Part shown: in pieces, positions 14,078 through 33,024 of the stretch | Numbering within the stretch: the first letter of the stretch is position 1 | Layout: the number at the start of each line of letters is the position of its first letter | Assembly: GCA_041674205.1 (NCBI GenBank) | Contig: JBAYWF010000002.1 | Span: forward strand, 46,940 to 110,939 | Length of the DNA stretch: 64,000 bases | Reading direction: 5' to 3' | Origin: Parcubacteria group bacterium | GTDB lineage: Bacteria; Patescibacteriota; Minisyncoccia; Moranbacterales; UBA2206 | Position numbers and translations under genes: made by a program | The notes under the pieces: generated by a model | What the model was told of the DNA's origin: nothing | The model's input: only the letters and a program-made list of their open reading frames with translations | Databases searched by the model: none

Positions 14078-16597
14078 CTATTTTGATTTTAAAATAGCTT
14101 TTTTGAACGCGTCACCTTTCTCTTCGAAATTCTTCCAAACGCTATAACTCGGTGAAGCGGTCGAAAGCAAACATATTCCGCCAGGCCTGCTATTGGCAAA
14201 AGCGAATTCTACCGCTTCATCCATTTCTCCGGTATGTAAAATATGGTATTTCTTCTTGGACTTTTTACGCAAAGCCGCCGCGATTTTTTTCCCGCTATCA
14301 GGAAAAAAGGCGATATTTCTGACTTTCGATTTATCGATAGCGACGGCTAGCTTCAAAAAGTCATAACCCCGATCCAATCCACCCAAAAATATCGTATCCA
14401 CATCTTCCAATGAATCGATGGCCGCCATAGTCGACTCAGGCGTAGTCGAAATCGCATCGTCATAAAATCTGATTCCCTGAAATTCACCGACCAGCTCCAA
14501 GCGATGCGGCAAAGATCGGAATCCCTCAATGCCTTGTTTTATGGTATTTTTAGAAATTCCCAGCACATCAGCCACGGCGATTGCCGCTTTGATATTTTCT
14601 ACATTATGCTTGCCTAGCAAGGGGACCTTTATATCTCCTAGGCCTATCCCATTGAATGGAACTTTTTTTACATTCAAGCCGGCGAGTCTTTTTTCCAACT
14701 CACGATCTTTTTGATTAAATACGCAAACATCGGTCTGATTCTGAAATTTCACAATATTGCTCTTGGCCGCATAATATTTTTCCACACCACCATGGTAATT
14801 CATATGTTCAGGAAAAAGATTAAGCATCACCGCGATATTCGGCGAATACCGGATATCATCCAATTGATAGCTGGAGAGTTCGATGACGAAAATTTCTTCC
14901 GGATCGATCGGTTGCAATATGGCTTCCAGCATCGGACTGCCGATATTTCCCAATAGCCTGGCTTTTTTCCCCGCGGCCTGCAAAATAGAAAAAATGAGTG
15001 AAGCCGTAGTGCTCTTGCCTTTGCTGCCCGTGACTCCAATGGTCAGATTCGCCACTTGGGAAAAAAACAAGTTAGTCGCGGTCGTGTATGGCCGAGTGAT
15101 CAATTCCTTAGGCAAGCCCGGAGTTTTTATAACCAAATCAAATCCATCCTGTTTTTCCAAATAATCCGATCCGTCCTTTTCGTCCGCGATGGCAATTTTT
15201 ATTTTTGGAAAATATTTTCTTATATATTTCCCAGTCACCATCCCTTCCTTGCCATAACCTAAAATCAGTGCATTTTTAATACCCGATAACTTGAATTTAT
15301 CAGGCAATGCTGGCGCCGGGTTTGTCTCAAAGACCTTTTTAATAAGCTTGTCTGGATTTTTTATCCTATTGACGACATTTTGCATAATAAAGCTGTCTGT
15401 GAATTTGTCCTTAGCCGAAAACAAAGCCGCACGCGACTCATCAAAAGTACCGACACAATCGAAGGGTTTCATTTTTCCATAACCCAACACGTCCAAAAAT
15501 AAAGGCAATAGTTTTTCATCCGCATACATATCCTTATGGAAAATTTCCATCATTTCCCGCTTGCTCAAAAAAGCTGATAAGAGAATCCACATAAAAACGC
15601 ATTTAGGACATTCGCCGCACCACAATCCGTTCGGCCGATCCTTATGTATGCGGAAGCTGCGGTTGCAACTCGTAAATAAGGGGAAATATTTTTTATACCT
15701 TACGAACATCTCCACGATGCGGATCTCATAGAACGGGCGCAAAAGGGAGAAATATGTGACATCCGGACAGATATTTTTTCTAGTATATTCCTGGAAAAGT
15801 TTTTCAAATTCAGCCGACTTGCTCCATTGATGGTTGATTTCTTCACCTTTATAGGTGATGTTGCCGAAATTACTGCTATATTCGTTAGCTACGACCACCC
15901 GGGCATAATCATAAACGATCGCCGCGAAATAACCCAGAAAAGCGAAGACGGCCGAAATCGGGATATGTCCGTTATAGGCACCGGGAAAATCATCAAATAT
16001 CTTATCGTCCACACGCCTATTAATCACCAATGATCCGATTTTCAATTCCTCGGCTATCCGAACGGAAATCGGGGATTTTTTTTGCGTTTCAATCAAAAGA
16101 GCCGTGATATCCTCCCGCTGCTCCTTCAAAAGTTCCGCCGCCACGATCGAATCCTTGCCGCCGCCGATACCTACCAGTGAACGGTTTTTCCGGACCAGTT
16201 TGCGCGCGATCGGTTTCTTTTTCGCGTCATACGGGAATCTGACCAAATTATGCGGATCAATTCCGTTGCGATAAAAAAATTCACCCAAACCTTTCCGATA
16301 AACCGTATTCCAAAATTCCGCCTGATCCTTGGAAAGGACGGAGGAAATTTTTATTTTTTTCGGACAATATAATTTATAATAACTTATTCCCAATATGATA
16401 TGGATGCTGGATAATAAGTTTTTCAAAATTTCCGGATGGATGCCGGACACTGAAAATTTATCCGAAAAAGATATCGTCTCTGAAAAACGCAACGGCTCCC
16501 GATCGGCAAAAATTATCTCATAGTCAAAAACAGCCCTGGTTTTATCCGGCTCCAACTTATACGAAATAAAATTAAAGACTTTCGGATTAGGTTTCAT
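14078..16597 (-). CDS. fusion protein: N-terminal PP-loop ATP-pyrophosphatase domain (QueC-like, C-terminal CxxCxxC) + complete MurD-like Mur ligase
   Basis: SGGxDS-type PP-loop LVGIGGGKDS, CGECPKC; C-terminal half has MurD Rossmann N-domain and Mur ligase P-loop GVTGSKGKSTT. Confidence 0.7.
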   Translation of the reverse strand: MKPNPKVFNFISYKLEPDKTRAVFDYEIIFADREPLRFSETISFSDKFSVSGIHPEILKNLLSSIHIILGISYYKLYCPKKIKISSVLSKDQAEFWNTVYRKGLGEFFYRNGIDPHNLVRFPYDAKKKPIARKLVRKNRSLVGIGGGKDSIVAAELLKEQREDITALLIETQKKSPISVRIAEELKIGSLVINRRVDDKIFDDFPGAYNGHIPISAVFAFLGYFAAIVYDYARVVVANEYSSNFGNITYKGEEINHQWSKSAEFEKLFQEYTRKNICPDVTYFSLLRPFYEIRIVEMFVRYKKYFPLFTSCNRSFRIHKDRPNGLWCGECPKCVFMWILLSAFLSKREMMEIFHKDMYADEKLLPLFLDVLGYGKMKPFDCVGTFDESRAALFSAKDKFTDSFIMQNVVNRIKNPDKLIKKVFETNPAPALPDKFKLSGIKNALILGYGKEGMVTGKYIRKYFPKIKIAIADEKDGSDYLEKQDGFDLVIKTPGLPKELITRPYTTATNLFFSQVANLTIGVTGSKGKSTTASLIFSILQAAGKKARLLGNIGSPMLEAILQPIDPEEIFVIELSSYQLDDIRYSPNIAVMLNLFPEHMNYHGGVEKYYAAKSNIVKFQNQTDVCVFNQKDRELEKRLAGLNVKKVPFNGIGLGDIKVPLLGKHNVENIKAAIAVADVLGISKNTIKQGIEGFRSLPHRLELVGEFQGIRFYDDAISTTPESTMAAIDSLEDVDTIFLGGLDRGYDFLKLAVAIDKSKVRNIAFFPDSGKKIAAALRKKSKKKYHILHTGEMDEAVEFAFANSRPGGICLLSTASPSYSVWKNFEEKGDAFKKAILKSK

Positions 16598-16608
16598 TCT
16601 GATTTATC

Positions 16609-18180
16609 TCAGCGTCTAATTACCTCACCGAACCGGCCACCCGCATAAACTCCGTCTTGCAGCGCGATCTGTCCATTGACTAAAACCAGATCGATGCCTT
16701 TGTTATACCGATAGGGATTTTCCTGGGTGGCGAAATCGCAGATTTCATCGCGATTGATGATTACGATATCCGCGAAATATTTTTCTTTTAACATCCCTCT
16801 TTTTTTGATGCCGAATTTCCGCGCCGGCAATGAAGTCATTTTCGCGATCGCCTCTTCCCATCGCAAAAGCCTTTTACCCAAGACATATTTAGCCAAGACC
16901 CGCGGAAAAGTCCCAAAGCTTCGCGGATGCACCACCTCGCCCGTCTGTCCATGATTGTCACGATAGCCGGAACCGTTAGTCGAGATGACCGCGGCCGGAT
17001 GGACGATCGCTTTTTCGATGTTTTCTTCGCTCAAAACATCCATCGAAATGATGACTTGCCCGTCTGAAGCGATCAAAATATCCACTATGGCATCTTCTAT
17101 CGATTTTTCTTGGGAAACGGCTATTTCCGCGATTTTCCGCCTGGCCAGCGTCTTATTCAAGGGGGAACTGGCTATTTCTATCTTGGAATAATCGATTGCT
17201 GACGCTTTCATTTCCGCCACAACCTTAGCACGGTTTGCCGGATCTTTCAAGCGGTTGAGCATCATTTTCTTACCCCCATCAGTCGCCCAAGACGGCAATA
17301 GCGTATACAGGACCGAACCGGTATTCGTGTATGGATAAACATCAAAAGTCACGTCCAATCCGGTTTCGCGCGCCCGGGAAATCATATTCAAGGCATCCTC
17401 CATCATAGGCCAGTTTTCTTCTCCCATAACTTTGAGATGGGATATGTGCAATTTGACTTTCGTCAGACGGGCAATTTCGATCGATTCTTCAACCGAATCC
17501 AAAAATCCGGCATTTTCATCGCGCATATGAGTCACATACACCCCGCCGCGCTCTTCGATTTTCTCCGCCAAACTGATGATTTCATCCTTAGTCGTGCTTC
17601 TCGCATGGGTATAGACCAACCCGGACGACATTCCCAAGGCGCCTTCCTTCATCGCGTCTGATAATTTTCCCGCCAAAAAATCCACTTCTCTGAAATTGAG
17701 ATTCCGCATCTCATCCCCTAGGATGCTTCGGCGCAAAGTCGCCTGTCCGACCAGCGTGGCAAAATTCACGGACAATTTTTTCCTCCCGATGACATCCAGA
17801 AATTCCCGCATACCCAGCCAATCCAAACTAGTATTATTGACGCTTAGCCATTTCTGCACGGACACGATCGCTTTCGCTCCCAAAAGCGGCGCCAAAGATG
17901 ATCCGCAATTGCCGCCCACGATAGTCGTGATACCCTGATGCACCAAGCTTTCCAGATCCGGATTGGAAAATATCTGCCAATAAGTATCGCTATGGTTATT
18001 CACATCCACAAAACCGGGACACACCAATCGGTCAGCCGCGTCGATTTCGATTTCGCCTTTTTCATTCTGCAAATCCCCGATTTTGGCTATCTTGTCATCC
18101 TTTATGCCGATATCCGCGCGATACATCGGCTCTCCTCCACCATCGATCAGCGTCCCGTTTTTTATTATGATGTCGAACAT
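16609..18180 (-). CDS. D-aminoacylase / N-acyl-D-amino-acid deacylase-family amidohydrolase
   Basis: MFDIIIKNGTLIDGGG...VCPGFVDVNNHSD metal-dependent amidohydrolase N-terminus typical of D-aminoacylases. Confidence 0.7.
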   Translation of the reverse strand: MFDIIIKNGTLIDGGGEPMYRADIGIKDDKIAKIGDLQNEKGEIEIDAADRLVCPGFVDVNNHSDTYWQIFSNPDLESLVHQGITTIVGGNCGSSLAPLLGAKAIVSVQKWLSVNNTSLDWLGMREFLDVIGRKKLSVNFATLVGQATLRRSILGDEMRNLNFREVDFLAGKLSDAMKEGALGMSSGLVYTHARSTTKDEIISLAEKIEERGGVYVTHMRDENAGFLDSVEESIEIARLTKVKLHISHLKVMGEENWPMMEDALNMISRARETGLDVTFDVYPYTNTGSVLYTLLPSWATDGGKKMMLNRLKDPANRAKVVAEMKASAIDYSKIEIASSPLNKTLARRKIAEIAVSQEKSIEDAIVDILIASDGQVIISMDVLSEENIEKAIVHPAAVISTNGSGYRDNHGQTGEVVHPRSFGTFPRVLAKYVLGKRLLRWEEAIAKMTSLPARKFGIKKRGMLKEKYFADIVIINRDEICDFATQENPYRYNKGIDLVLVNGQIALQDGVYAGGRFGEVIRR

Positions 18181-18289: not shown

Positions 18290-19294
18290 TTATAACTTAT
18301 TACCGACAAGTTCCGCCATCTCCACTAACCGGTTCGAATATCCCCATTCATTGTCATACCAACCGACCACTTTGATCAGATTGCCGTTCGCCATAGTCAA
18401 AGGCAGGTCCACGATTGCGGAATTCGGATTACCTTTGAAATCCATAGAAACCAGTTGTCCGTCTTCAGTCGCCAGGATATCCTTCAATCCGCCCTGCGCC
18501 GCCATCCTGAACGCGTTGTTGATCTGTTCGACGTCGGCTTCCTGCTTGACGGTGCAGATGAAATCCACAATGGAAACGACCGGCGTCGGCACGCGCAATG
18601 AGATGCCGTCCAATTTACCCTCCAGATGTTCCATCACCAATCCGACCGTTTTGGCCGCGCCGGTCGTAGTCGGGATGATATTCAAAGCGGCCGCCCTGGC
18701 CCGGCGCAAATCGCGATGAGGCAAGTCCTGCAAGCGCTGGTCATTCGTGTACGAATGGGTGGTCGTCATAAAACCTTTTTCCACGCCGAAATTTTCGTCC
18801 AAAACTTTGATCATCGGCGCCAAACAATTGGTCGTACAGGAACCGTTTGAAATTATATTGTCTTTTTCCGGATCATATTCATGCTCGTTGATGCCGAGAA
18901 TATATACCGGAATATCCCCTTTGGGAGGCGCCGACAGAACGACTTTGCGCGCTCCCGCTAACAGATGTTTTTGCGCCTTTTCACGGTCTTCGAAAATTCC
19001 CGTACACTCCAAAACCACATCCACGCCCAAATCATGCCACGGCAACTTTTCCGGCGCCGGCTCGCTTAGATATTTTATCCGCTTGCCATCCACGATCAAG
19101 AACGACCCCTGCGCGTCGACTTCCACCGTGCGGTGATATTTGCCATAACTCGAATCATATTGCAAGAGATGCGCCGCCGTCTTGAGATCGGTCAAATCAT
19201 TGATAGCCACGATTTCCAAGTCTTCTTTTTCAAAAGCGATTTTGAATGATGGCCGTCCGATACGCCCGAAGCCATTGATTGCGATTTTTGTCAT
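18290..19294 (-). CDS. gap: glyceraldehyde-3-phosphate dehydrogenase
   Basis: MTKIAINGFGRIGR, catalytic SCTTNC. Confidence 0.95.
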   Translation of the reverse strand: MTKIAINGFGRIGRPSFKIAFEKEDLEIVAINDLTDLKTAAHLLQYDSSYGKYHRTVEVDAQGSFLIVDGKRIKYLSEPAPEKLPWHDLGVDVVLECTGIFEDREKAQKHLLAGARKVVLSAPPKGDIPVYILGINEHEYDPEKDNIISNGSCTTNCLAPMIKVLDENFGVEKGFMTTTHSYTNDQRLQDLPHRDLRRARAAALNIIPTTTGAAKTVGLVMEHLEGKLDGISLRVPTPVVSIVDFICTVKQEADVEQINNAFRMAAQGGLKDILATEDGQLVSMDFKGNPNSAIVDLPLTMANGNLIKVVGWYDNEWGYSNRLVEMAELVGNKL

Positions 19295-19315
19295 AGTGTG
19301 GAATTTATAAATTTA

Positions 19316-19603
19316 TTAAACCTCGATATTCGTAATCTTCCAATTATCCCCCGCCGCTTTTTCGATTTCAAACCGCGTATTTTTCAGGATCGTATCTTTG
19401 GCGATACTTTCAATTCCGAACCGCACGTTTTCCAGATTCAACTCATCGAAATGCTCGTCGTGCGCGTGATCATGATGATGGTCGTGCGGCATGCTGGCGC
19501 CGCCGATTTCCAAGGAAACCGATTTGATATTCCCGATATTTTTTTCTCGGCTGATTCGCAAAACGGCATCGACGATTTCCTTGGCTAATAAAAAATCATG
19601 CAT
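19316..19603 (-). CDS. HypA-like Ni-metallochaperone with His-rich segment, lacking the Zn-finger CxxC pairs
   Basis: MHDFLLAKEIVD (MHE-type N-terminus), HDHHHDHAHDEH; no Cys. Confidence 0.5.
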   Translation of the reverse strand: MHDFLLAKEIVDAVLRISREKNIGNIKSVSLEIGGASMPHDHHHDHAHDEHFDELNLENVRFGIESIAKDTILKNTRFEIEKAAGDNWKITNIEV

Positions 19604-19668
19604 AGGATTCCATAAAACGCAAACTGCGGAACTTAAGTGTCACGCATTTGCGTCGTGCGTTATGCGAT

Positions 19669-20043
19669 TTACGATTTCCACAATCCGTGGACATTGCAAT
19701 AAGCTCTCACTTCGATATGTTCAGCCTCCAGACAAAACTCCGCTTCCGGTTCCATACCCGGCTCCAAATGTTTCCGATAAACTCGATGCTCGGTTATGAC
19801 TTCGATCCATTCGATATAGTGTTCGCTCTCCATCGGATGCAGCACGCTGCCCACCCGCACGATCACGCCTTCACTCACCTTCTCCACGACCGGCCGGTGT
19901 TTTTCATATCTCTCTTCTTCGCTCTGTTCGGCTTGCAAAACCATCGGCTGGCCGCAACACACCAATTCACCCACTCCGTTATGCAAAACTTCGGTGATAT
20001 TGCCACAGATATCGCATTTATAGACTTGTCTTAATTCAGTCAT
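19669..20043 (-). CDS. dfx: desulfoferrodoxin (2Fe superoxide reductase)
   Basis: N-terminal desulforedoxin CDICGN...CCG; C-terminal SOR His/Cys ligands. Confidence 0.85.
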   Translation of the reverse strand: MTELRQVYKCDICGNITEVLHNGVGELVCCGQPMVLQAEQSEEERYEKHRPVVEKVSEGVIVRVGSVLHPMESEHYIEWIEVITEHRVYRKHLEPGMEPEAEFCLEAEHIEVRAYCNVHGLWKS

Positions 20044-20061
20044 ATTTTTATATTTAAAAAA

Positions 20062-21321
20062 TTAATGTACCGCGCAGGAAATGCACGGATCATAGGCCCG
20101 GATGAAGCCGCGTAACTTCTTTTGCTTGTCTTGATCCTTGAGATCGATTATCTCCTTGATGTAGTCCGCCACGTCATCTTCCAAATTAGCCAGGAACTGG
20201 GCGGTCGGAGTGATGATATTCACGTTTTTCACATAGCCTTTGCTGTCCACATCGACATGATAATAGAGCGTCCCGCGCGGAGCTTCGACCGCCGCCACGC
20301 CGACTCCCTCTTTGATTTCATATGGCCGGGTGACGACCCTCTCCAAGTCGGAGTTCAAAAGCTCTTTGATCAGCTTAGTCGATTCTTCGACGCAATGGAT
20401 GAGTTCAACCATCTGGCACAAGATATTATGGAATGGATTATAGTCCGGAAAAGTGAAATTCAAGCTTTCCAAATATTTGCCCGCTTGCGGATTGAGCTTA
20501 CTGCGGTTGATATTGATCCGGGCGATCGCTCCGACCATATAGCTTATCCCGTTATGCTCGACTTTTTTGATCACCTCGTTCTGCTTCTGCAATTCCTGGA
20601 AATCCTGTTCGAATTTTTCCACTGGGATATGCAGGCCGTACGAGGAAACTATGTCTCCGTCATAAACCGCATATCTCCCTTTCCCGCTCAAACATACATA
20701 CTCGGTTTCCCGTTGGAAATCGGGAATTTTTATTTTTTTGAAAAAATCACCCAGCGCGACAGCGTCTTGCAATGCCCGCTCGCTGTCCGCGACGATCTTC
20801 CGCAAAGCTTCCGCCTCCGGGGCTTTTTTGAAACCGCCCACCTCGTTGGTCAGCGGATGGATAACCCGTCCGCCGATGACCCGTACGATATCCATACCGA
20901 ACTCCCGCAGACGCACCGCGATTTTCGTTTCTTCGGGATAAGCGCTGACCAGCTGGATATCATTATCCATATCCAAAAAATCCGCCAATGACAGGAAAAA
21001 AAGATGGAGGGCATGCGAATGGATGATTTGCGCCAATTCCATCACCGTGCGCAGTTTTTTGGTTTCCGGCGTGACCTGGATGCCCATCGCGTTCTCCAAA
21101 GCCTTGATTGAAGTCAAGTTGTGCACCACCGGACAAATTCCACAAATGCGTTGGGCGATTATGGGCATATCCGTATAGTAGCGTCCGATCAGGACGCCCT
21201 CAATCAGACGGATGCCTTCCTGCACCTCCAGTTTGGCGCTTTTGACATCCCCATCCAACACACTGGCCATAAAACCGGCATGTCCTTCCATTTTAGCGAT
21301 ATGGTTTATTTTTATATCCAT
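20062..21321 (-). CDS. [NiFe]-hydrogenase large subunit (compact cytoplasmic group 3-like)
   Basis: N-terminal RICGICPVVH and C-terminal DPCISCAVH (ORF stops directly after His, no cleavable extension). Confidence 0.9.
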   Translation of the reverse strand: MDIKINHIAKMEGHAGFMASVLDGDVKSAKLEVQEGIRLIEGVLIGRYYTDMPIIAQRICGICPVVHNLTSIKALENAMGIQVTPETKKLRTVMELAQIIHSHALHLFFLSLADFLDMDNDIQLVSAYPEETKIAVRLREFGMDIVRVIGGRVIHPLTNEVGGFKKAPEAEALRKIVADSERALQDAVALGDFFKKIKIPDFQRETEYVCLSGKGRYAVYDGDIVSSYGLHIPVEKFEQDFQELQKQNEVIKKVEHNGISYMVGAIARININRSKLNPQAGKYLESLNFTFPDYNPFHNILCQMVELIHCVEESTKLIKELLNSDLERVVTRPYEIKEGVGVAAVEAPRGTLYYHVDVDSKGYVKNVNIITPTAQFLANLEDDVADYIKEIIDLKDQDKQKKLRGFIRAYDPCISCAVH

Positions 21322-21325
21322 AATT

Positions 21326-22534
21326 TTATATTTTTATGTTTTTTTCCCTCGCCTCTATATCATCCCGCAAGCCGAAAATCTCAGCGATGTTTTCAAATTC
21401 ATGGTCGGTCACCATATTTTTCAAAGCCGCGCGCATCGCTTTCACATTTCCAGTCGGACGGAGTCCGCGGCATCCCTGGCAAGTCATCCGGGAGGTCGGA
21501 CAGACCGCGCCGCACCCGCCCTGGATCATCGGTCCGAAGCACGGCTTCTTGTCGAGCAACAGACAACGGTTGCCAGCCGCTTTGCATTCGACGCAAACCG
21601 GCTGGTCGGGAATGACCGGAATCCGGCCGGCTAGCAATTCCGGGATATAGCGCAGAAACTCATCGCCGGAAATCGGACAGCCTGGGAAAACAAAATCGAC
21701 TTTTACGAAATTATCGATTTCCCTGATTTCCGGATTACTGATGCCTTGGATATATTTGTAGACATGTTTGATCGTATTGGCGCCTTCCTGGTAATTTTTA
21801 ATTTCCGGTATTCCGCCCATAGCCGCGCAATTGCCCAATGCTACCAATAACTTGCTTCTTTTACGCAAAGCTTTCAAAGTTTTTACATTTTCTTCCGTCA
21901 CCGGATTGCCTTCCACCAAGACCAAATCCAAATCGCCTCCGCCATCCTCTTCATCCTCGATCAGGCGGAAATCCACCATTTCTATTTTTCCCACAAAATC
22001 CAAAAATTTCTCGCCCAAATCCAGCAAAGCGAATTGGCACCCCTCGCAAGAAGTCAAGCTGGCGATAGCCACTTTCGGTTTTTTCAATTTGGCCTCCGGT
22101 TTGCTTGGCGCCGCTTTTGCCACTTTTGCGATTTTAACGGTTTTCTTAACCGCGCTTTTGTTTTTTTCATTCACGACAGCCACAGACGCATCAACTTTCT
22201 TTTTGGCTACCCGCTTGACTGTCGGCTTTCTCTTATCAGCCTTTGCCTTGCTCTTATTCGCAGGTTTGTTTGGCAATATCTTTTTTGCATCCTTTGTTTT
22301 TTTATCAGCTACTGTTTTTTTCTTGACCGTCAACTTAGCTGGCATTTTTTTCTTCACAACCCTCGCGCCTTTCTTGGCCACAGCCGATTTATTTTTCGCT
22401 ATCCCTACGGGCAGCTTTTTCACTTTCGATTTCTTGGCGTTTTTTTTAGCCGCAACTTTGCCTCTTAACCGAGAGGTCACACTGGATAACCTGCCTAAAA
22501 ATTTAGCGATTTTTGATTTTTTATTTACTGCCAT
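21326..22534 (-). CDS. [NiFe]-hydrogenase small subunit with ~150 aa Lys/Ala-rich N-terminal extension
   Basis: SCEGCQF proximal-cluster motif and C-terminal Cys clusters; N-terminal KKxAK repeats. Confidence 0.85.
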   Translation of the reverse strand: MAVNKKSKIAKFLGRLSSVTSRLRGKVAAKKNAKKSKVKKLPVGIAKNKSAVAKKGARVVKKKMPAKLTVKKKTVADKKTKDAKKILPNKPANKSKAKADKRKPTVKRVAKKKVDASVAVVNEKNKSAVKKTVKIAKVAKAAPSKPEAKLKKPKVAIASLTSCEGCQFALLDLGEKFLDFVGKIEMVDFRLIEDEEDGGGDLDLVLVEGNPVTEENVKTLKALRKRSKLLVALGNCAAMGGIPEIKNYQEGANTIKHVYKYIQGISNPEIREIDNFVKVDFVFPGCPISGDEFLRYIPELLAGRIPVIPDQPVCVECKAAGNRCLLLDKKPCFGPMIQGGCGAVCPTSRMTCQGCRGLRPTGNVKAMRAALKNMVTDHEFENIAEIFGLRDDIEAREKNIKI

Positions 22535-22612: not shown

Positions 22613-23776
22613 ATGCGGATATTCGAATATGAAAATAAGGACACTCGACAAATCTTGGCTCTCGGTCCCGAATCGAACGGCAATTTTTCGTTTTTCTATC
22701 AGAACAAGCTTTATTTTTCCGAAGATTTCGGCGATCTATTGATTGATAAAAATTTCCATAATTACAAAACGGGCCTTTCTAAGTTCCTCAGCGCAAACAA
22801 CTTCCGTCCGGACATCATCCTCACCGACTCGCATCCGCTCTACAAAACTACCACCCTAGGCCGAAACCTGGCTAAAAAATATCCCGCCAGACTTATCCAG
22901 ATCCAGCACCACCTCGCCCACATTTTTTCCGCGATCGGCGATAAAACATTACTGACTAGAAACTATCAGCTAGAAAAGGCTTTAGGCATAACTTTGGACG
23001 GTACCGGCTATGGATCGGATGATAAAATTTGGGGAGGGGAAATTTTTAGAATTTCAAAATCCAAATTTCAAATTTTAAATCAAATCCCACAACTAAAATT
23101 ACAAATCGAAAGGATCGGACACCTGGAAAACCAAGTGATGATCGGGGGTGATTTGGCTATCAAGGAGCCTGCACGTATGTTGATCGGCATCTTATCAAAA
23201 TTCCTACCCAAGGAAAGCATCTATCCGCATATAAGAAAATATTATTCCGCCCAGGAATTTGAAGTTTTATACAACCAATCGCAACAGAAATTCAACTGCA
23301 TCGAAACATCCAGCACCGGAAGGATTTTGGACGCGGTTTCCGTGCTGCTCGGTTTTTGCGGCAATCAAAGAAATTACAAACATGAGCCGATCGAGTTATT
23401 GGAAAAAAATTCAGCAAAACCCTATTTGGATTTAAAACCCGAAATTAGCAAAGATTCCGACGGAAACCATATCCTCAGCACCACTTATTTATTTAATTAC
23501 ATACTTAAATACTTACATAAAAACAAAGATATATCTGACGGGGATAGGAACCGCTTGGCTGCCACCGCCCAACTCTACATCGCCCAAGGACTATACCGAA
23601 TAATTTCGGATGCAGATTTCGAAATCAGGGACTTCTATCTAGCCGGCGGCATCGCCAACAATAAAATAATTTCCGGATATCTGGACTCCAAGGGCGCCTA
23701 CGCCAGCCGGACGATTCCCCGCGGCGACGCCGGGCTTTCGTTCGGGCAGATCGTTTTCTATTTATCCGGCCACTAA
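22613..23776 (+). CDS. HypF-like carbamoyltransferase, C-terminal Kae1/YgjD-like domain only
   Basis: QHHLAHIF (HypF HHxAH), LDGTGYGSD, LAGGIANN; no acylphosphatase, Zn-finger or YrdC domains. Confidence 0.6.
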   Translation: MRIFEYENKDTRQILALGPESNGNFSFFYQNKLYFSEDFGDLLIDKNFHNYKTGLSKFLSANNFRPDIILTDSHPLYKTTTLGRNLAKKYPARLIQIQHHLAHIFSAIGDKTLLTRNYQLEKALGITLDGTGYGSDDKIWGGEIFRISKSKFQILNQIPQLKLQIERIGHLENQVMIGGDLAIKEPARMLIGILSKFLPKESIYPHIRKYYSAQEFEVLYNQSQQKFNCIETSSTGRILDAVSVLLGFCGNQRNYKHEPIELLEKNSAKPYLDLKPEISKDSDGNHILSTTYLFNYILKYLHKNKDISDGDRNRLAATAQLYIAQGLYRIISDADFEIRDFYLAGGIANNKIISGYLDSKGAYASRTIPRGDAGLSFGQIVFYLSGH

Positions 23777-24525: not shown

Positions 24526-25506
24526 TCAACAAATGCGAGGAATCAATTTTCCCCGCGGAACATCGATTTTTTTGATGCCGCCGAGCGAAGTTTTGAGATA
24601 GACGCCTTTTCCACGCGCGACCGAACCGATGATTTTGGCGTTTTTGTCGTATTTCTGCAAGATTTTGACGGTTTTTTGGGCTTCTTTAGCGGAAACCGTC
24701 GCCACAAAACGGCCTTCGGAAGGGAAAGAAAATTTATCGATACCCAGGAGTTCGGACAAGGCCACCGTTTCTTTGGCGAAAGGAAGCTTGCCTTCTTCTA
24801 AAACTATTTTCACTTTGGATTTTTCGGCGATTTCATTAAGCACGGCCGCCACCCCGCCCCGGGTCGGATCTTTGCATGAAGTCAGATATTTGGCCACACT
24901 TTGGATTTCCAGGGTCAAGGGCCGGCAATCGCTTTTGATTTTGGTCTTGTAATTGAAACGGCTGGCCAAAAGCGCCACCGCGTGCTCGCCCAGATTGCCG
25001 GAAGCGATGACCGCGTCCCCCGCTTGCGCCCCGCCGTTTCCGATTATCTTTTTGGCCAACCCCACTCCGGAAGTGGTGATTTCCAATTTGTCGATCTTGC
25101 CCCTTTCCGTGACCTTGGTGTCCCCCGTCACGATCGGCACGCCGGTTTCCCGGGAGACCTTGCCGATCGACCGCATAATTTTTTGCAGATCTTCTTCCGG
25201 AAAACCTTCTTCGATCACCAGGCTCAAGCCGACGCCGATCGGACGCGCGCCCATCACCGACAAATCATTGATGGTGCCGCATAGCGCGATTTTGCCGATA
25301 TCGCCGCCCGGGAAAAAAAGCGGATCCACGATGAAAGCGTCCGTCGTAAAAACCAATCGTTCCTTGCCGATCCGGAACGAAGCTCCGTCATCCTGCGTGT
25401 TTTTCCACTGGCGGCTTGCTACGAAATTCCGACGGATTTGCGCGATCAGCCGATTGGATTTTTCTCCGCCTGCTCCAGCCTCCAATTCGATCATTTCTTT
25501 TTCCAT
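24526..25506 (-). CDS. hypE: hydrogenase maturation factor HypE
   Basis: AIR-synthase-like fold motifs and C-terminal PRIC. Confidence 0.9.
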   Translation of the reverse strand: MEKEMIELEAGAGGEKSNRLIAQIRRNFVASRQWKNTQDDGASFRIGKERLVFTTDAFIVDPLFFPGGDIGKIALCGTINDLSVMGARPIGVGLSLVIEEGFPEEDLQKIMRSIGKVSRETGVPIVTGDTKVTERGKIDKLEITTSGVGLAKKIIGNGGAQAGDAVIASGNLGEHAVALLASRFNYKTKIKSDCRPLTLEIQSVAKYLTSCKDPTRGGVAAVLNEIAEKSKVKIVLEEGKLPFAKETVALSELLGIDKFSFPSEGRFVATVSAKEAQKTVKILQKYDKNAKIIGSVARGKGVYLKTSLGGIKKIDVPRGKLIPRIC

Positions 25507-25888: not shown

Positions 25889-25930
25889 AAAAAAAAGGCG
25901 TCCTGGCGAGAAAAATTCCCGCCAGGACGC
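25889..25930 (-). terminator. rho-independent terminator after PhoH-like gene
   Basis: minus strand GCGTCCTGGCGggaatttttctCGCCAGGACGCctttttttt. Confidence 0.7.
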
Positions 25931-27357: not shown

Positions 27358-28389
27358 CTAAGAAAACCTGTGCGCCACGTTGCAACTCCCCTCCACCGAA
27401 ACCATACAGGCGCCTTGCGGCTTGTCCGGCGTACAAACCCGACCAAAAAGCGGGCATTCTTTCGGTTCGATCAATCCTTGCAAGACCAGTCCACACCTGC
27501 AAGCGCTCGGTTTGGGCTTTGTTTCTTTTTTGATTTTTCCAATCAAATCCTTATGCACGGATTCCGCATCCTGTTTTTGATATTTTTTCCGGATCTTCAA
27601 ACCGGAATTCTTTATTTCGCCCAATCCCCGCCAACGCGCATCTGAAACTTCAAAAACCTCATCGATCAGCTTCCTGGCCTTGGGGTTGCCATCTTTTTTG
27701 ACCAAGCGCGGATAGGCATTTTCCACTTCTTTCCTGCCTTCCAGGATTTGCGCCAAAAGCCTATCGATCGCCCGCAAGACATCCTTTCCGGAAAAACCGG
27801 CTACGACCTGGGGAATTTCAAACTGTCCATAAACCCGCGTACCGATAATCGCACTGACGTGTCCCGGATCAATGAAACCGTCCACCTTGATTTTCTTATT
27901 CGCCAAAAGCGCTTCCATCGCCGGCGGAAAAATTTTATGGGCGCAATAAACAGTTATCCCGTTTTGGACTGCCCAGGCACTTGGCGGCGTCGTCGTTTCA
28001 AATCCCAGGCCGAAAAACACGATGTCGGGATATTTGTTTTTCAATTCCAAGACTTCCGCGACATCATAGACCGCGAAAACTTCGGCGCCCTTCTGCCGCG
28101 CCTGTTCCAAACTCATCAGGTTCCCAGGAACATTCAGGACATCTCCATATGCCGCCACCGGGATTCCCGCCAACGCCAAACCGGCCATCACGTCGATGTC
28201 CGTCTGGTCTGTCACACACACCGGACAGCCCGGGCCAGAAACCAGCTTCACATTTTTTGGCATCAAACTTTTGATCCCATTTTGCGCTATCGTCTGCGAA
28301 TGCGTCCCGCACAATTCCATCAAACGGACTTCCCGGCCGATTTCCGCCGCCAATTTATGGATATTCTTTACGATTTTATCGATTTCCAT
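27358..28389 (-). CDS. hypD: hydrogenase maturation factor HypD
   Basis: CGTH, GPGCPVCV signature motifs. Confidence 0.9.
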   Translation of the reverse strand: MEIDKIVKNIHKLAAEIGREVRLMELCGTHSQTIAQNGIKSLMPKNVKLVSGPGCPVCVTDQTDIDVMAGLALAGIPVAAYGDVLNVPGNLMSLEQARQKGAEVFAVYDVAEVLELKNKYPDIVFFGLGFETTTPPSAWAVQNGITVYCAHKIFPPAMEALLANKKIKVDGFIDPGHVSAIIGTRVYGQFEIPQVVAGFSGKDVLRAIDRLLAQILEGRKEVENAYPRLVKKDGNPKARKLIDEVFEVSDARWRGLGEIKNSGLKIRKKYQKQDAESVHKDLIGKIKKETKPKPSACRCGLVLQGLIEPKECPLFGRVCTPDKPQGACMVSVEGSCNVAHRFS

Positions 28390-28399
28390 AACCAGATTT

Positions 28400-28606
28400 T
28401 TATTTTTTACCTAAATACCCTTGGATATCTCTTACTAATTCCGTATCCATTTTCTCGATCGCAAAGCCGGCATGCACCATCACGAAATCTCCGATTTTCA
28501 CGTCAACCAAGGCGACATTCACGGTCTTCCCGATGCCATTGAAATCAATTTCAGCCACATCACCTTTGATTTTTAGAATTTTACCAGGGATAGCTAAACA
28601 CATATG
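28400..28606 (-). CDS. hypC: hydrogenase maturation factor HypC (start at MCLAIP; ORF extends to 28660)
   Basis: MCLAIPGKILKI canonical HypC N-terminus. Confidence 0.85.
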   Translation of the reverse strand, partial: HMCLAIPGKILKIKGDVAEIDFNGIGKTVNVALVDVKIGDFVMVHAGFAIEKMDTELVRDIQGYLGKK

Positions 28607-28722: not shown

Positions 28723-30126
28723 TTACTTCCTAGATTGCCCTCCCCCGTTGACGCAGCCGCCCGGACAAACCATACATTCGATGAGGCCTGTTTTAATCCG
28801 GCCTTTGTCCAGATCGCGCAAGATGTTTTTTATTTGCGGCACGCCATCAGCCACGATATATTCCCTGCCAGTCATTTTGGCGATCATTTCCGCCGCCCCG
28901 CCCGCCCGCTTCATATCCTTGGCGCTTTCATTTTTCACGGCAAAATCCTTGCCGAAACCAACGCTTTTTATTTCCGCCAATTTAATATTTTTTTGCCTGA
29001 TCAACCGGCCCAATTCCCTGACAGTCAAAATATGATCAAGCTTTCCGCTTCTATCTTTTTTCTTCGCCACGCACGGGGAAATGGAAATAACCACGATATC
29101 TTGCGGATTTATTTTGTGCAGTTTCGCATAATCGCCTTTAATAGCCTCCGCCATCAATTCGTCCGGATTGGCGACATCCAAAACGCTGCCTTTGAACTGC
29201 GGATAATATTTATCCACTAATAAATTGAAAGATGGGCAATGGCTGAGCATCAGATTGCCCTTGCCGCTTGTTTTGATAGCCTGCGCCATTTTTTCCAGCG
29301 CCAATCCCATCCCGAACCCCAAATCAAAAACTTTTTCAAATCCCAGCGCTTCAAGCGCCCCGACCAATTTTCCTTCCGAATTTATCTCAGACTGCTCCAA
29401 AGCGATCGATTCCAAAACGGCCGGGTCAACCAAAGCGACAGCCATTTTTTTCAAATCATCCAATTCCGCTTGGATTCCGACTAGGTCATTTTTGTCAGTC
29501 AAAGCGCCAGTCGGACAATCTTTCACGCATTGCCCGCAAAAAATACAATCCAAAGGTTTTCCATACGCAGTGCCGACCACGGCATCTCCCGCCCGATGAT
29601 TGAAGGCCAGCTCCTTGGTCGGGCAGATATTGATGCATCTCCGGCATTCTACGCATAACTCAGTCGTCCTGGAAACGCAGGGATTGCCCTCGTCCACCAC
29701 TACTCGTGAGCGGTTGTCTTTCAACAAATCGAGATTTTCCCTGTCGGTCAATTCTTCTTTTCTGGGAATAAAATGGAAGTTTTCGATTTTCTGTTCCGTC
29801 GCCAGATTCTGCAATTCGCAGCGCTGGTTTTTCTTGCAAGCCGCGCATTTGCCCGCATGGTCCGCCCACAGCAATTCCAAATTGATCCGCCGGGCTTGGG
29901 AAATTTTTTCACTTTCCGTCACGATTTCCATCCCTTCGTAAACTTTCGTATTGCAAGAAGTGATGAGGCGTCCGCCGCATTCCACCACGCAGATCCGGCA
30001 CACGCCTTCGTGCGAATTTTTCGTACCGCATAATGTCGGGATCTTTATCCCGTTGCGCAAACAAACCTGGAAAATAGTCTCTCCCGGCTTTATTTCAAAA
30101 TCCTGACCGTTGATTTTTATTTTCAT
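28723..30126 (-). CDS. hydA: [FeFe]-hydrogenase catalytic subunit HydA (2Fe-2S + His-ligated 4Fe-4S + 2x4Fe-4S + compact H-domain), with Cys-to-His in L1 motif
   Basis: L1 LSHCP (canonical TSCCP), L2 SPCVAKKKD, L3 ECMVCPGGCVNGGGQ; N-terminal ferredoxin-like Cys clusters. Confidence 0.85.
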   Translation of the reverse strand: MKIKINGQDFEIKPGETIFQVCLRNGIKIPTLCGTKNSHEGVCRICVVECGGRLITSCNTKVYEGMEIVTESEKISQARRINLELLWADHAGKCAACKKNQRCELQNLATEQKIENFHFIPRKEELTDRENLDLLKDNRSRVVVDEGNPCVSRTTELCVECRRCINICPTKELAFNHRAGDAVVGTAYGKPLDCIFCGQCVKDCPTGALTDKNDLVGIQAELDDLKKMAVALVDPAVLESIALEQSEINSEGKLVGALEALGFEKVFDLGFGMGLALEKMAQAIKTSGKGNLMLSHCPSFNLLVDKYYPQFKGSVLDVANPDELMAEAIKGDYAKLHKINPQDIVVISISPCVAKKKDRSGKLDHILTVRELGRLIRQKNIKLAEIKSVGFGKDFAVKNESAKDMKRAGGAAEMIAKMTGREYIVADGVPQIKNILRDLDKGRIKTGLIECMVCPGGCVNGGGQSRK

Positions 30127-30170: not shown

Positions 30171-31415
30171 TTATTTGGAAATCTTATAGATTTCATCGCG
30201 GAAATTTTCCAGAGCGTCCGAAAAAGCCGTCGCGGCGAATTTACCCAACGGACAGAAGGTCGTATTATTGAGCGTCCACAAGATATCCTGGATGGCCGCC
30301 ACGTCCCGTTCGGACACTTCCCCGTCTTGCAGGCGCTTAGCGATTTCCCATAAACGAAAGGTTCCTTCGCGGCATGGCACGCATTTGCCGCAGGATTCCC
30401 GGCGGAAAAAACCCGTCCAGGACAGCAGCAATTCATGGATATTGGCTGTCTTGTCCACTACCAGCACCGCTCCGGATCCCAACGGGATTTTCGCTTCACA
30501 ATCATATTCCAATTTCAATTTCAAATCTTTTTCCAGCGCCAACCGTCCAGATGACCCGCCCACCTGCGCGAACCGGAACTCCTTGCCCAACTGGATACCG
30601 CCGGCATATTTCCCGATCAAATCACCTAATTTTATGCCTAGTGGCGCTTCAAAAACATCCGGATTTTTCACCGCTCCATTCACGATGAACAATTTGGTGC
30701 CGGGAGATTTCCGGGAACCGATTTTCGCATACGCCTTTCCGCCATTTTCGATTATCCACGGGATATTGGCTATGGTTTCCGCGTTATTGATCGCCGTCGG
30801 TTTACCAAACAACCCGCATTGCGTCGGATAGGGCGGCCGCGCTTTCGGCTCGCCGCGATTGCCCTCGATGGAATTCAAAAGCGCCGTTTCTTCCCCGCAG
30901 ATATATGCCCCGGCACCCGCGAAAATTTCCATTTCCAAACCATATTTTGAACCTAGGATGCTTTCGCCGATGAAATTTTTTTCCCGCGCTTGTTCCACCG
31001 CCCGCTCTAAAATTCCGATTTCTTTTCCATAGTTGCCATTGACGTATATGAAAGCCTTCCGCGCGCCCACGATCAATGATCCAATGATGATCCCCTCCAA
31101 AAGCATATGCGGATCATTATCAACGATCGACCGATCCTTGTAGGTTCCAGGCTCCGACTCATCCAGATTGCAAATGAAATATTTTTCCTGGTTTTTTTCC
31201 AAAGCCACGCATCCAAGCTTCCGTCCAGTCGGAAAACCGGCGCCGCCCCGCCCGCACAATCCGGAAACATTGATTTCCTCCAAAGCCGATTGCGGCGTCA
31301 TCTCCCGTATGAATTTCGACAAAGCGGCATATCCGCCCGTAGCGGCATAATCTTCTATCCTGCCCGGATTTATCTTCCCCCAATTTTTGGTTATTATTTT
31401 TATTTCCTTCTTCAT
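30171..31415 (-). CDS. NuoF-like NAD(P)H-binding flavoprotein subunit (HydB/HndC type); ORF extends to 31511
   Basis: GLCGRGGAGFPTGRK, CGKCVPCREG. Confidence 0.85.
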   Translation of the reverse strand: MKKEIKIITKNWGKINPGRIEDYAATGGYAALSKFIREMTPQSALEEINVSGLCGRGGAGFPTGRKLGCVALEKNQEKYFICNLDESEPGTYKDRSIVDNDPHMLLEGIIIGSLIVGARKAFIYVNGNYGKEIGILERAVEQAREKNFIGESILGSKYGLEMEIFAGAGAYICGEETALLNSIEGNRGEPKARPPYPTQCGLFGKPTAINNAETIANIPWIIENGGKAYAKIGSRKSPGTKLFIVNGAVKNPDVFEAPLGIKLGDLIGKYAGGIQLGKEFRFAQVGGSSGRLALEKDLKLKLEYDCEAKIPLGSGAVLVVDKTANIHELLLSWTGFFRRESCGKCVPCREGTFRLWEIAKRLQDGEVSERDVAAIQDILWTLNNTTFCPLGKFAATAFSDALENFRDEIYKISK

Positions 31416-31755
31416 CCTTACATTATATCGCAACAACCATATTTTGCATATCAAATCCCATATTTTTTTCCCACTGCTTATTGAGAAAACCGCCCTTAGT
31501 CTCCGCGCCACGATTGATCAATTCGTCTTTTACTCATATTTTCCAACCATCATTCTTGCCTTGATTGAGCTCCAAACAATAGTAACCTTTACAAAAAACA
31601 ATTTTTAGTGTATAATAGATAATTGTGCCTGATTATTATCCGACCAACACCAGATTTTGTTCGATAATTGACTTTTGAATCAAAAACGCTATCATTTATA
31701 AAGAACGGTTTTGCACATTCCAACACATTCAAACAAAACATTTCAGGGGGTCAGG

Positions 31756-32301
31756 ATGAAAAAAGAAATTTCTACGGACGGGATTATCGAAGCGTTGGGC
31801 AATATAATCGCAAGCGGCGATGCCAGCGCCGCGAAAGAAATCCTAAAGGAACTGAAAAAATCCCATTCCGAAACAATTCAGGGAGTGCTGGAATTAATGG
31901 CACAAAAGGCTTTGAGGATGGGGATGTTTTTCCATCCTGGTTCCAAAGTGACCGTGTTAGATCCCGCCCACCACCCAAGCTATTCGACATTTATGTGTCC
32001 TAAGCTCGAGAGTCTGCCTTCAGACATGGAAAGGATAACGTTTCGGTGGGCTTTCACGGAGATAGAAAACGGCAGCCATTATCTGCCGGACGATACCCTT
32101 GTATCATATGGCCATTCCGACTACATCATCACGTTGATAGATGTGCTTACTGAATGTGATACTGATACGCTTAGAAAAATAACTGAAATGGCCAGACGGA
32201 TGTCCACGAAGACGGTAGTCATCGCTATGGCTATCATAAACCGCGGCTACACCGCCGAAAGTCTGGGAGTGGATGAATTTTATTCTCTCCTTGATTTATG
32301 A
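31756..32301 (+). CDS. hypothetical protein (opposite strand, between hydB and hydC)
   Basis: ORF from MKKEISTDG; no motif recognised. Confidence 0.4.
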   Translation: MKKEISTDGIIEALGNIIASGDASAAKEILKELKKSHSETIQGVLELMAQKALRMGMFFHPGSKVTVLDPAHHPSYSTFMCPKLESLPSDMERITFRWAFTEIENGSHYLPDDTLVSYGHSDYIITLIDVLTECDTDTLRKITEMARRMSTKTVVIAMAIINRGYTAESLGVDEFYSLLDL

Positions 32302-32544
32302 ACCATCCGAAAAACGGAAAAAGAGGTTGCCGATCCCGGCAGCCTCTCATTTTTTTTAAACAGACGGGGCCTTGGCACGGATCCGAAAATAACTTATACT
32401 GGGACAAGGCCTTCAGAATGGAGAGGTGAAAAATTGGGACCCACCTGGATTTTCAGGGAAAAAATTATTTTTTCCGTTAAATTTTTCAAGGGACCCACGC
32501 GCCTAGGAGCCCGACGGGCTCCCGCTCCTGCATTGAGGGCCCAA

Positions 32545-32583: not shown

Positions 32584-33024
32584 TCAGATATAATTCCGCA
32601 GGATGTCATCCACACTGCTGGGCGTCACTCTGGTAAAAACATTGCCATTCACGACCATCACCGGCCCCTGGCCGCATTGTCCAAGACAACTGATGATCTC
32701 GAGCTTAACGTTGGGATTGAAATCATCACCGGCTTTGATATGCAACTGGCTTTCGATTTCAGATATAACTTTAAAACTGCTCTTTACCGCGCAATTGGCT
32801 CCGGAACAGACCTGGATAACCAAGCCAGGCTGTTTTTTGGTTTTGACCAGATCATAGAAACTGGCGACTTCATAAACCTTGGAAAGCGGCACGGAAAAAT
32901 AATCCGCCGCTTTACGCGCCTCCTCCTCACCGACATAGCCGAAACCGGCGTCGATTTTTTTCAGCGCCGGCAACAGGTTTTTTTGTTCCGGATCGAATTC
33001 CAAAAGGATTTTTTCAACTGCCAT
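32584..33024 (-). CDS. NuoE-like thioredoxin-fold [2Fe-2S] subunit (HydC/HndA type)
   Basis: CSGANC...CLGQCGQGPVMVVN. Confidence 0.85.
   Translation of the reverse strand: MAVEKILLEFDPEQKNLLPALKKIDAGFGYVGEEEARKAADYFSVPLSKVYEVASFYDLVKTKKQPGLVIQVCSGANCAVKSSFKVISEIESQLHIKAGDDFNPNVKLEIISCLGQCGQGPVMVVNGNVFTRVTPSSVDDILRNYI

Follow-up and report, generated by a model that had tools for sequence, protein, structure and literature searches.

Bacteria of the Candidate Phyla Radiation (CPR) are abundant in groundwater and thought to be fermentative, and their disposal of reductant has been inferred almost wholly from hydrogenase genes. The closest described relatives of the enzyme considered here are the cytoplasmic group 3b sulfhydrogenases SHI of Pyrococcus furiosus and Hyh of Thermococcus kodakarensis (PDB 9e1j, 9nez, 5yxy), which share with it an alpha subunit of ~420 aa and a three-cluster delta subunit. 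They differ from it in having a beta subunit (Fer4_22), a gamma subunit (FAD/NAD and [2Fe-2S]) and a maturation protease. According to Jaffe et al. 2020 (BMC Biol, PMC7304191), two CPR-specific clades are related to group 3b: hyd1, with a small subunit of ~250 aa and beta/gamma usually nearby, and hyd2, with one of ~164 aa and without beta/gamma. For part of the hyd1 genomes the authors report beta/gamma as "not detected at all", with incompleteness or lineage-specific loss as possible reasons. The present window, a stretch of 64,000 nucleotides from a Parcubacteria group bacterium of the Moranbacterales (contig JBAYWF010000002.1), encodes such an alpha-delta pair at 20062-22534. Three features of this locus are new: the clade-wide absence of the large-subunit C-terminal extension in a group-3 lineage, the confirmation of a genuine loss of beta/gamma in Moranbacteria, and a conserved link to a HydABC-like trio of genes (NuoE-, NuoF- and HydA-like) with a decaying [FeFe]-hydrogenase domain (H-domain). 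Tentatively, with a probability of roughly 45%, the enzyme is read as an NADH-linked fermentative hydrogenase whose alpha-delta pair would exchange electrons with NAD(H) via this trio.

The [NiFe] large subunit (alpha, HyhL; 20062-21321, minus strand) is a 419-residue protein matching Pfam NiFeSe_Hases (E 3e-34). Its motifs RICGICPVVH, near the N-terminus, and DPCISCAVH, at the very C-terminus, keep all four Ni-Fe cysteines (RICGIC, DPCISC), and the 3' end of the gene reads GCG GTA CAT TAA, with the stop codon straight after His419. The first-pass annotation, an earlier reading of this DNA, gave the same length, motifs and coordinates, which rereading of the open reading frame (ORF) and of the DNA confirms. 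The small-subunit gene (21326-22534, minus strand) lies 4 nt upstream on the same strand. It codes for 402 aa, with Oxidored_q6 at aa 163-297, and is made of two parts. The core (delta, HyhS; 21326-22078, minus strand), ~250 aa long, contains 12 Cys arranged as for three [4Fe-4S] clusters, like SHI delta. The N-terminal tail (22079-22534, minus strand) is a low-complexity Lys/Ala-rich segment of 152 aa (32% K, 16% A) that is probably disordered; it resembles histone H1, and across 33 related species tails between 5 and 152 aa long occur. The large subunit has over 100 database clusters at 74% identity or more, nearly all 419 aa long save for shorter N-terminal calls, and alpha and delta are therefore real genes rather than chance ORFs. 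The 120 closest relatives above this identity are mostly named Candidatus Moranbacteria or Moraniibacteriota.

Among solved structures, the large subunit is matched best by SHI alpha (3.5e-66) and T. kodakarensis Hyh (5.8e-64), followed at lower rank by Mvh (3.5e-52), 7t2r (5.7e-48), an F420-reducing hydrogenase alpha chain (2.2e-41) and Hox (7.6e-38). The best structural match of the small subunit is SHI delta (6e-35), over ~207 aligned residues that span the Cys-rich region of the medial and distal clusters; the chains 7t2r_E and 5xf9_C, only 179-189 aa long, score lower. The top NCBIfam models are sulfhyd_HydA, ShyA and ShyD, all well under their equivalog cut-offs (247 vs 880 bits). These best matches agree with the "group-3-like size" noted at first pass, and specify a group 3b affinity. 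Judged by sequence, the alpha-delta pair thus appears to belong to a Patescibacteria-specific clade related to group 3b, namely hyd1: its small-subunit core is ~250 aa long and its large subunit groups with CPR sequences in a neighbour-joining tree and by source names. This assignment follows the published description of hyd1 (small-subunit length, CPR neighbours). Rather than a hydrogenase of a new kind, the enzyme is a lineage-specific variant of a CPR clade already on record.

Canonical 3b-like relatives with an intact C-terminal motif run 4-24 residues past the terminal His, often as FLxVxx. In the longer of the deposited alpha chains of SHI and Hyh, 4 residues follow it; in the window enzyme, none. 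A large-subunit search of 1.8 billion cluster representatives yielded 150 diverse relatives, of which ~35, including all the closest ones (35-47% identity), stop exactly at the His. In a neighbour-joining tree, these His-terminated sequences are almost monophyletic and form two subclades, the first holding the Moranbacteria enzymes and the second including fusions of a short small subunit with the large subunit. When the first subclade was used for a profile search, the matches carried names of Komeilibacteria, Pacebacteria, Parcubacteria and Patescibacteria. In three sister CPR loci (L040-L042 in our numbering of related loci; 45-48% identity), alpha ends at the His in all three while beta and gamma are kept. 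Because these four-subunit members of the clade also end at the His, lack of the extension is a clade-wide trait and has no connection with the two-gene layout. The first-pass picture of a minimal two-gene enzyme without extension therefore stands as to the extension and falls as to its tie with a minimal layout. A local truncation or assembly artefact is rejected, since nearly every one of the 120 closest clusters has a length of 419 aa, shorter N-terminal calls apart, and the ~35 more distant representatives are His-terminated.

Naturally extension-less [NiFe] hydrogenases have been listed for groups 2b, 2d, 4c, 4e and 4g, with no group 3 enzyme among them (Hartmann et al. 2020, PMC7294309). 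They resemble the window enzyme in a large subunit that stops at the His and in the use of the standard Hyp machinery without an endopeptidase, and differ from it in being sensory or membrane-associated enzymes of groups 2 and 4. As the published list names no group 3 enzyme, the extension-less state is under-recognised in group 3, though mechanistically it is not new. No gene for a HycI-type protease occurs among the window ORFs scanned with Pfam (60 ORFs, chosen outside the ribosomal-protein stretch at ~41-52 kb), in agreement with the first-pass statement that no HycI/HybD-type protease is encoded here; the large subunit has nothing to cleave.

Several variations on this theme occur among the relatives. 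Four distant ones (P0140, P0144, P0190, P0263) are single polypeptides in which a short small subunit is fused to a large subunit lacking the extension, and P0139, also distant, has an FmdE-like domain beyond the extension. A few others (P0193, P0236, P0252) carry tails of ~180-200 aa after the large subunit, which are possibly fused proteases; the one tail scanned, that of P0193, has no Pfam match. In 11 related species (L001:8940-9893, L009, L016, L017, L020, L021, L027, L031, L034, L036, L043), a gene for a ~315-aa Peptidase_M10 (matrixin) protein with a signal-anchor-like N-terminal hydrophobic stretch stands between the small- and large-subunit genes. This protein was considered as a new maturation protease and judged unlikely to be one, given its anchor-like N-terminus, the lack of an extension to cleave and the absence of its gene from the window. 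Other relatives have a PDDEXK_3 gene at this place, and in L014 a short ORF there resembles GIY-YIG on visual inspection.

The first-pass annotation reported only large- and small-subunit genes, without beta/gamma, and this holds: no beta/gamma gene (Fer4_22, NAD_binding_1/DHODB) was found by Pfam in the scanned window ORFs, and tblastn with real CPR beta and gamma sequences gave no match across the whole window. The same is true beyond this genome. A scan of one genome per species gave 33 Moraniibacteriota loci, whose gene order was mapped by tblastn, and no beta/gamma gene lies within 10 kb of the large-subunit gene in any of these 33 Moranbacteria species. The sister CPR loci L040-L042 encode beta (Fer4_22), gamma (NAD_binding_1 and DHODB_Fe-S_bind), delta, the His-ended alpha and HypA, in the order beta-gamma-HypC-EamA-DUF6390-delta-alpha-HypA in two of the three; the third has hypC after hypA. 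The loss of beta/gamma is thus genuine and specific to Moranbacteria, and no artefact of incomplete bins. CPR 3b-related hydrogenases lacking detectable beta/gamma are already mentioned in PMC7304191. A sensory or regulatory hydrogenase was also considered and rejected, the best matches being group 3b, no PAS/kinase partner being present here, and the extension being lost in beta/gamma-bearing enzymes as well.

The EamA and DUF6390 genes lie just upstream of the small-subunit gene in sister CPR (L040:8394-9140, L042:3654-4376) and in one basal Moranbacteria locus (L015:8042-8740), and divergent proteins of 224-239 aa occupy this position, between hypC and the small-subunit gene, in L003, L039 and L043. 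The latter were rejected as redox partners, having few Cys and no Pfam match and being absent from the window, as was a 140-aa Cys-containing ORF of L038, found in one genome only.

The place of beta/gamma is taken by other genes. The slot just upstream of hypC, which holds beta/gamma in sister CPR, holds in Moranbacteria a trio encoding a NuoE/HydC-like thioredoxin-like [2Fe-2S] protein, recognised by domain match (32584-33024, minus strand), a NuoF/HydB-like FMN- and NAD(H)-binding protein reduced to a minimal core (30171-31511, minus strand), and an [FeFe]-hydrogenase-like HydA of 467 aa (28723-30126, minus strand). Typical hyd1 clusters differ from this subclade in having beta and gamma upstream, as in L040-L042, and no description of such a trio in that slot was found in the passages of PMC7304191 consulted. 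Across the 33 loci, the conserved order is TIM, FBA, [NuoE, NuoF, HydA-like], HypC, HypD, HypE, HypF (opposite strand), small subunit, large subunit, [desulfoferrodoxin], HypA, GAPDH and amidohydrolase, and the glycolytic genes (GAPDH, FBA, TIM) border the cluster in all relatives. In the window, the small-subunit gene is followed upstream by HypF (plus strand), HypE, VanZ, PIN-PhoH, HypD and HypC, then by the HydA-, NuoF- and NuoE-like genes.

The trio lies inside the fetched locus in 11 of the 33 species. In L029 it stands at the same junction of FBA and hypC, more than 10 kb upstream, with a two-component system inserted (L045); the assembly of L026 has trio and hyp genes on a second contig (L044); and L020 probably has the trio too, a truncated HydA-like protein being on record from a contig equal in length to that of the locus. 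The upstream flank is too short to judge in 13 of the 33 species, and two more show 10 kb of upstream sequence without trio or FBA. The slot just upstream of hypC contains the trio in the window, in the 11 species loci, in L043, L044 and L045, and in one JGI contig. Moreover, hypC, the gene of a NiFe-specific chaperone, directly follows the HydA-like gene in 15 of 16 contexts, and the window, like 15 or more related contexts, has NuoE-, NuoF- and NuoG/HoxU-like genes clustered with the small- and large-subunit genes. The most compact arrangement, on one strand, is found in two metagenomic contigs: NuoE, NuoF, HydA-like, HypC, an unknown protein of ~230 aa, small subunit, Peptidase_M10, large subunit, desulfoferrodoxin and HypA. 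Putative partner subunits in a conserved cluster, which the first-pass annotation named as evidence that would count against its picture, are accordingly present at the level of synteny, where most informative relatives have the trio. The first-pass suggestion of a NuoEF-like pair as possible partner remains the best-supported option, with the correction that the pair is not free-standing: the HydA-like gene beside it had been overlooked, and both belong to a HydABC-like trio syntenic with the hyp and NiFe genes. Between nuoE and nuoF of the window is inserted a 196-aa ORF of unassigned function (31711-32301, plus strand; 70% identity in L005), with a promoter-like site (11/12) at 31588-31616 and a terminator-like hairpin at 32322-32347.

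The N-terminal part of the HydA-like protein is NuoG/HoxU-like, with one [2Fe-2S] site and three [4Fe-4S] sites. Its best structure matches are HydA of Thermoanaerobacter kivui, Acetobacterium woodii and Thermotoga maritima HydABC (E 1.5e-70 to 7.5e-58), and its best NCBIfam model, under cut-off, is that of the NADH-dependent group A6 [FeFe] hydrogenase. Compared with [FeFe] group A3 (HydABC), motifs L1 (TSCCPxW) and L2 (MPCxxKxxE) are not matched, L3 (ExMxCxxGCxxGGGQ) is intact, and the extra iron-sulfur domains of HydB are absent from the trio. In the window, the H-domain is shortened: L1 reads LSHCPSF for TSCCP, the ligand Cys being kept and the relay Cys replaced by His; L2 is SPCVAKK, with Ser for the Met of MPC; L3 is intact; and the protein ends with ECMVCPGGCVNGGGQ and a stop codon, the small-subunit-like C-terminus being missing. 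Similar changes run through the family. The four H-cluster cysteines are kept in 88 full-length members, and in all 88 the proton-relay position is not Cys (His 44, Phe 21, Tyr 15, Asn 7, Ser 1). The mean pairwise identity is 69% in the N-terminal iron-sulfur part vs 44% in the H-domain, the former being higher in every pair, while three canonical relatives in the same match list show no such gap. Some members have lost the GGGQ end of L3, and ~25 protein clusters of 342-352 aa are devoid of all H-cluster ligands and keep every N-terminal iron-sulfur cysteine. These truncated forms make up one subclade on the alpha tree, in which the NuoE and NuoF genes are intact; a stable derived state fits these sequences better than random decay. 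The H-domain is degenerating, outside the normal constraint on a hydrogenase. Because the H-domain-less subclade keeps the iron-sulfur cysteines together with intact NuoE/NuoF, the trio retains a function with no need of the H-cluster.

Under the NADH-linked reading, a Moranbacteria ancestor would have lost the NADPH-linked beta/gamma module. Glycolytic NADH would then reduce the FMN of the NuoF-like subunit, from which electrons would enter the HydA-like subunit, a conduit in the manner of HoxU/NuoG, cross its [2Fe-2S]/[4Fe-4S] chain and move on to the three [4Fe-4S] clusters of delta and to the Ni-Fe site, where H2 would be released in a reversible reaction. We infer that trio and alpha-delta associate physically, that NADH is used and that the reaction runs this way. 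The location of the cluster between FBA/TIM and GAPDH fits a reoxidation of glycolytic NADH with release of H2. The NuoF-like protein aligns to residues ~106-555 of bifurcating HydB/NiFe-HydB, without their N- and C-terminal iron-sulfur domains; since it lacks these extra domains, a simple NADH-dependent, non-bifurcating enzyme is more likely. A HydB of this kind is said to be the pattern that Losey et al. reported in 2020 for non-bifurcating NADH-dependent enzymes. If the reading holds, the predicted cofactor shifts from NADPH/polysulfide to NADH, and metabolic models built on these genes change.

An NADH module of this type is plausible by analogy with the NiFe-HydABCSL of Acetomicrobium mobile, with Hox and with the archaeal hybrid hydrogenases. 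NiFe-HydABCSL likewise links NiFe large and small subunits to NuoE-, NuoF- and NuoG/HydA-like proteins, and chains of its structure (PDB 7t2r) match four of the five window proteins (alpha, delta, HydA-like, NuoF-like). Its HydB has extra iron-sulfur domains, and its HydA matches the window protein only in the N-terminal iron-sulfur part; in the window, a degenerate H-domain is still present on the HydA-like protein and the NuoF-like protein is minimal. Both NiFe-HydABCSL and Hox differ further by a small subunit of ~180 aa and a 3d-like large subunit of ~475 aa.

Other observations weigh against the NADH-linked reading. The delta subunit is of the three-cluster 3b type, not the short one-cluster HoxY/HydS of NuoEFG-linked enzymes, and in P. 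furiosus the three-cluster delta docks to beta. In four of the 33 species (L012, L014, L015, L033), corresponding to about two losses on the alpha tree, FBA is followed directly by hypC or the small-subunit region, with no trio at the slot; as the NiFe genes are intact there, alpha-delta can persist without an adjacent trio. In the window itself, trio and alpha-delta are 6 kb apart, with HypF on the opposite strand and PhoH and VanZ between them. A strong terminator-like hairpin (25898-25930, minus strand; 15-bp stem, 10 GC pairs, T run) at the boundary of PIN-PhoH and VanZ-HypE splits the trio/HypCD unit from the HypE side. From this gap, the intervening genes and the terminator-like site, it follows that trio and alpha-delta do not form one operon in the window. 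Lastly, the full-length HydA-like proteins may still be independent [FeFe] hydrogenases, as all four H-cluster cysteines are kept. The short small subunit of NiFe-HydABCSL and Hox is known to carry one cluster.

The four trio-less species lend weight to a different and less probable account, in which alpha-delta is a stand-alone heterodimer with no dedicated diaphorase, whose exposed distal [4Fe-4S] cluster would be fed directly by ferredoxin or pyruvate:ferredoxin oxidoreductase (POR) for fermentative H2 production. The trio would then be a separate, decaying [FeFe]-type hydrogenase having no more than a hydrogen-metabolism island in common with it. Two of these species, L015 and L033, lack desulfoferrodoxin as well, and hyd1 members without detectable beta/gamma are mentioned in PMC7304191. 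The engineered alpha-delta dimer of P. furiosus SHI, highly active, with no use of NADPH and direct acceptance of electrons from POR (Hopkins et al. 2011, PMC3200332), is alike in being a competent two-subunit 3b core without beta/gamma; it differs in being man-made, the window enzyme representing a natural conserved lineage. The sister CPR locus L042 has POR genes between delta and alpha (pyruvate:ferredoxin oxidoreductase and P-type ATPase genes, L042:7439-9957). However, neither a POR nor a ferredoxin gene occurs among the window ORFs scanned, and a stand-alone dimer leaves unexplained both that the trio occupies the former beta/gamma slot and that NuoE/NuoF and the H-domain-less HydA are kept intact beside hypC across a whole subclade.

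The presence of an H-domain next to a three-cluster NiFe pair also invites comparison with the archaeal hybrid [FeFe]/[NiFe] hydrogenases (groups F/G with 3f/3g; Greening et al. 2024, Cell, PMC11216029). By domain inventory, these share HydC, HydB, a four-cluster NuoG-like conduit, an H-domain, a three-cluster HyhS and HyhL with the window. They display a HyhS-HydA fusion and a separate HydD, whereas in the window it is the conduit that is joined to the H-domain, HyhS having its own gene 6 kb away; the window cluster is also interrupted by hyp genes, its host is bacterial and its proton-relay Cys is replaced. That the 3b-type alpha-delta and the [FeFe]-type H-domain share one NuoE/NuoF/NuoG-like NADH module in a single complex, as a bacterial counterpart of these hybrids, is doubtful. 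If it were so, the series from loss of the relay Cys through erosion of L3 to deletion of the H-domain would supply intermediates between the FeFe-HydABC and NiFe-HydABCSL types. More generally, should the trio dock to alpha-delta, the states of H-domain decay would be a natural record of [FeFe]/[NiFe] module exchange on an NADH-dehydrogenase scaffold.

The genes downstream of alpha are those named at first pass, a desulfoferrodoxin (Dfx) and a HypA-like gene, after which comes GAPDH. Dfx, a 2Fe superoxide reductase (19669-20043, minus strand), starts 18 nt after the large-subunit stop, and both its metal centres are intact by sequence. Its gene stands between alpha and hypA in 25 of the 33 related species, which raises the improbable option of an H2-driven oxidative-stress defence, where alpha-delta would oxidise H2 and pass electrons to Dfx for the reduction of superoxide, so protecting an oxygen-sensitive fermenter; this role may coexist with the other readings. 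The known electron donors of Dfx are rubredoxins, and none is seen here. Precedent for H2-powered removal of reactive oxygen species comes from a natural [FeFe] hydrogenase-rubrerythrin fusion, which couples H2 to H2O2 reduction according to PMC11926857. However, 8 of the 33 species have no Dfx gene, nor do the basal Moranbacteria lineages or the clusters of sister CPR, and its absence from the latter two indicates an add-on rather than a core partner.

The maturation genes are distributed on both sides of alpha-delta. On the Dfx side, the HypA-like nickel chaperone (19316-19603, minus strand; 95 aa) has an MHD N-terminus and no Cys, and its central loop is expanded to the His-rich PHDHHHDHAHDEH. 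HypA-like proteins of the clade (L003, L005, L007-L009, L040, L042 and others) are 84-95 aa long, begin with MHD or MHE and are Cys-free in nearly all cases; therefore, the zinc domain is gone. No HypB gene was found among the 60 scanned window ORFs, and the His-rich loop might compensate for it. On the other side, the truncated HypF (22613-23776, plus strand) covers profile positions 387-739 of 741. It is reduced to its Kae1-like carbamoyltransferase domain, having lost the acylphosphatase, zinc-finger and YrdC-like parts, as in the relatives examined. HypF1 of Ralstonia eutropha is reportedly a functional precedent for such a truncation. HypE (24526-25506, minus strand) and HypD (27358-28389, minus strand) are recognised by domain match, and HypC (28400-28603, minus strand), with its true start at MCLAIPGK, lies directly downstream of the HydA-like gene. 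Judged by its sequences, the hyp set seems to be a minimal one that has been conserved. Maturation would thus involve a Zn-less HypA, HypC, HypD, HypE and a Kae1-only HypF, and would need no proteolysis, as translation already yields the large subunit in its "processed" form. If this reading holds, an extension-less group-3 clade so equipped offers a naturally minimal [NiFe] maturation system, useful for heterologous production.

The truncation of HypF and HypA, the loss of partner subunits and the selfish or unrelated genes lying between the small- and large-subunit genes of relatives could also be taken as marks of a decaying, non-functional remnant in a reduced genome. This is very improbable: alpha is full-length, with 66-95% identity in the 33 species and all metal ligands intact, delta retains all 12 cluster cysteines, and the same truncated forms of HypA and HypF are conserved across the clade.

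Outside the hydrogenase genes, the window encodes an 839-aa Mur ligase homologue (14078-16597, minus strand), with MurL_N and MurL epimerase domains annotated in its L001 and L002 relatives; its gene adjoins that of a D-aminoacylase-like amidohydrolase (16609-18180). A RhuM/Fic-domain protein is found at 55610-56623 (minus strand). In the related locus L039, a bAvd and reverse-transcriptase pair at 19170-20559 resembles a diversity-generating retroelement.

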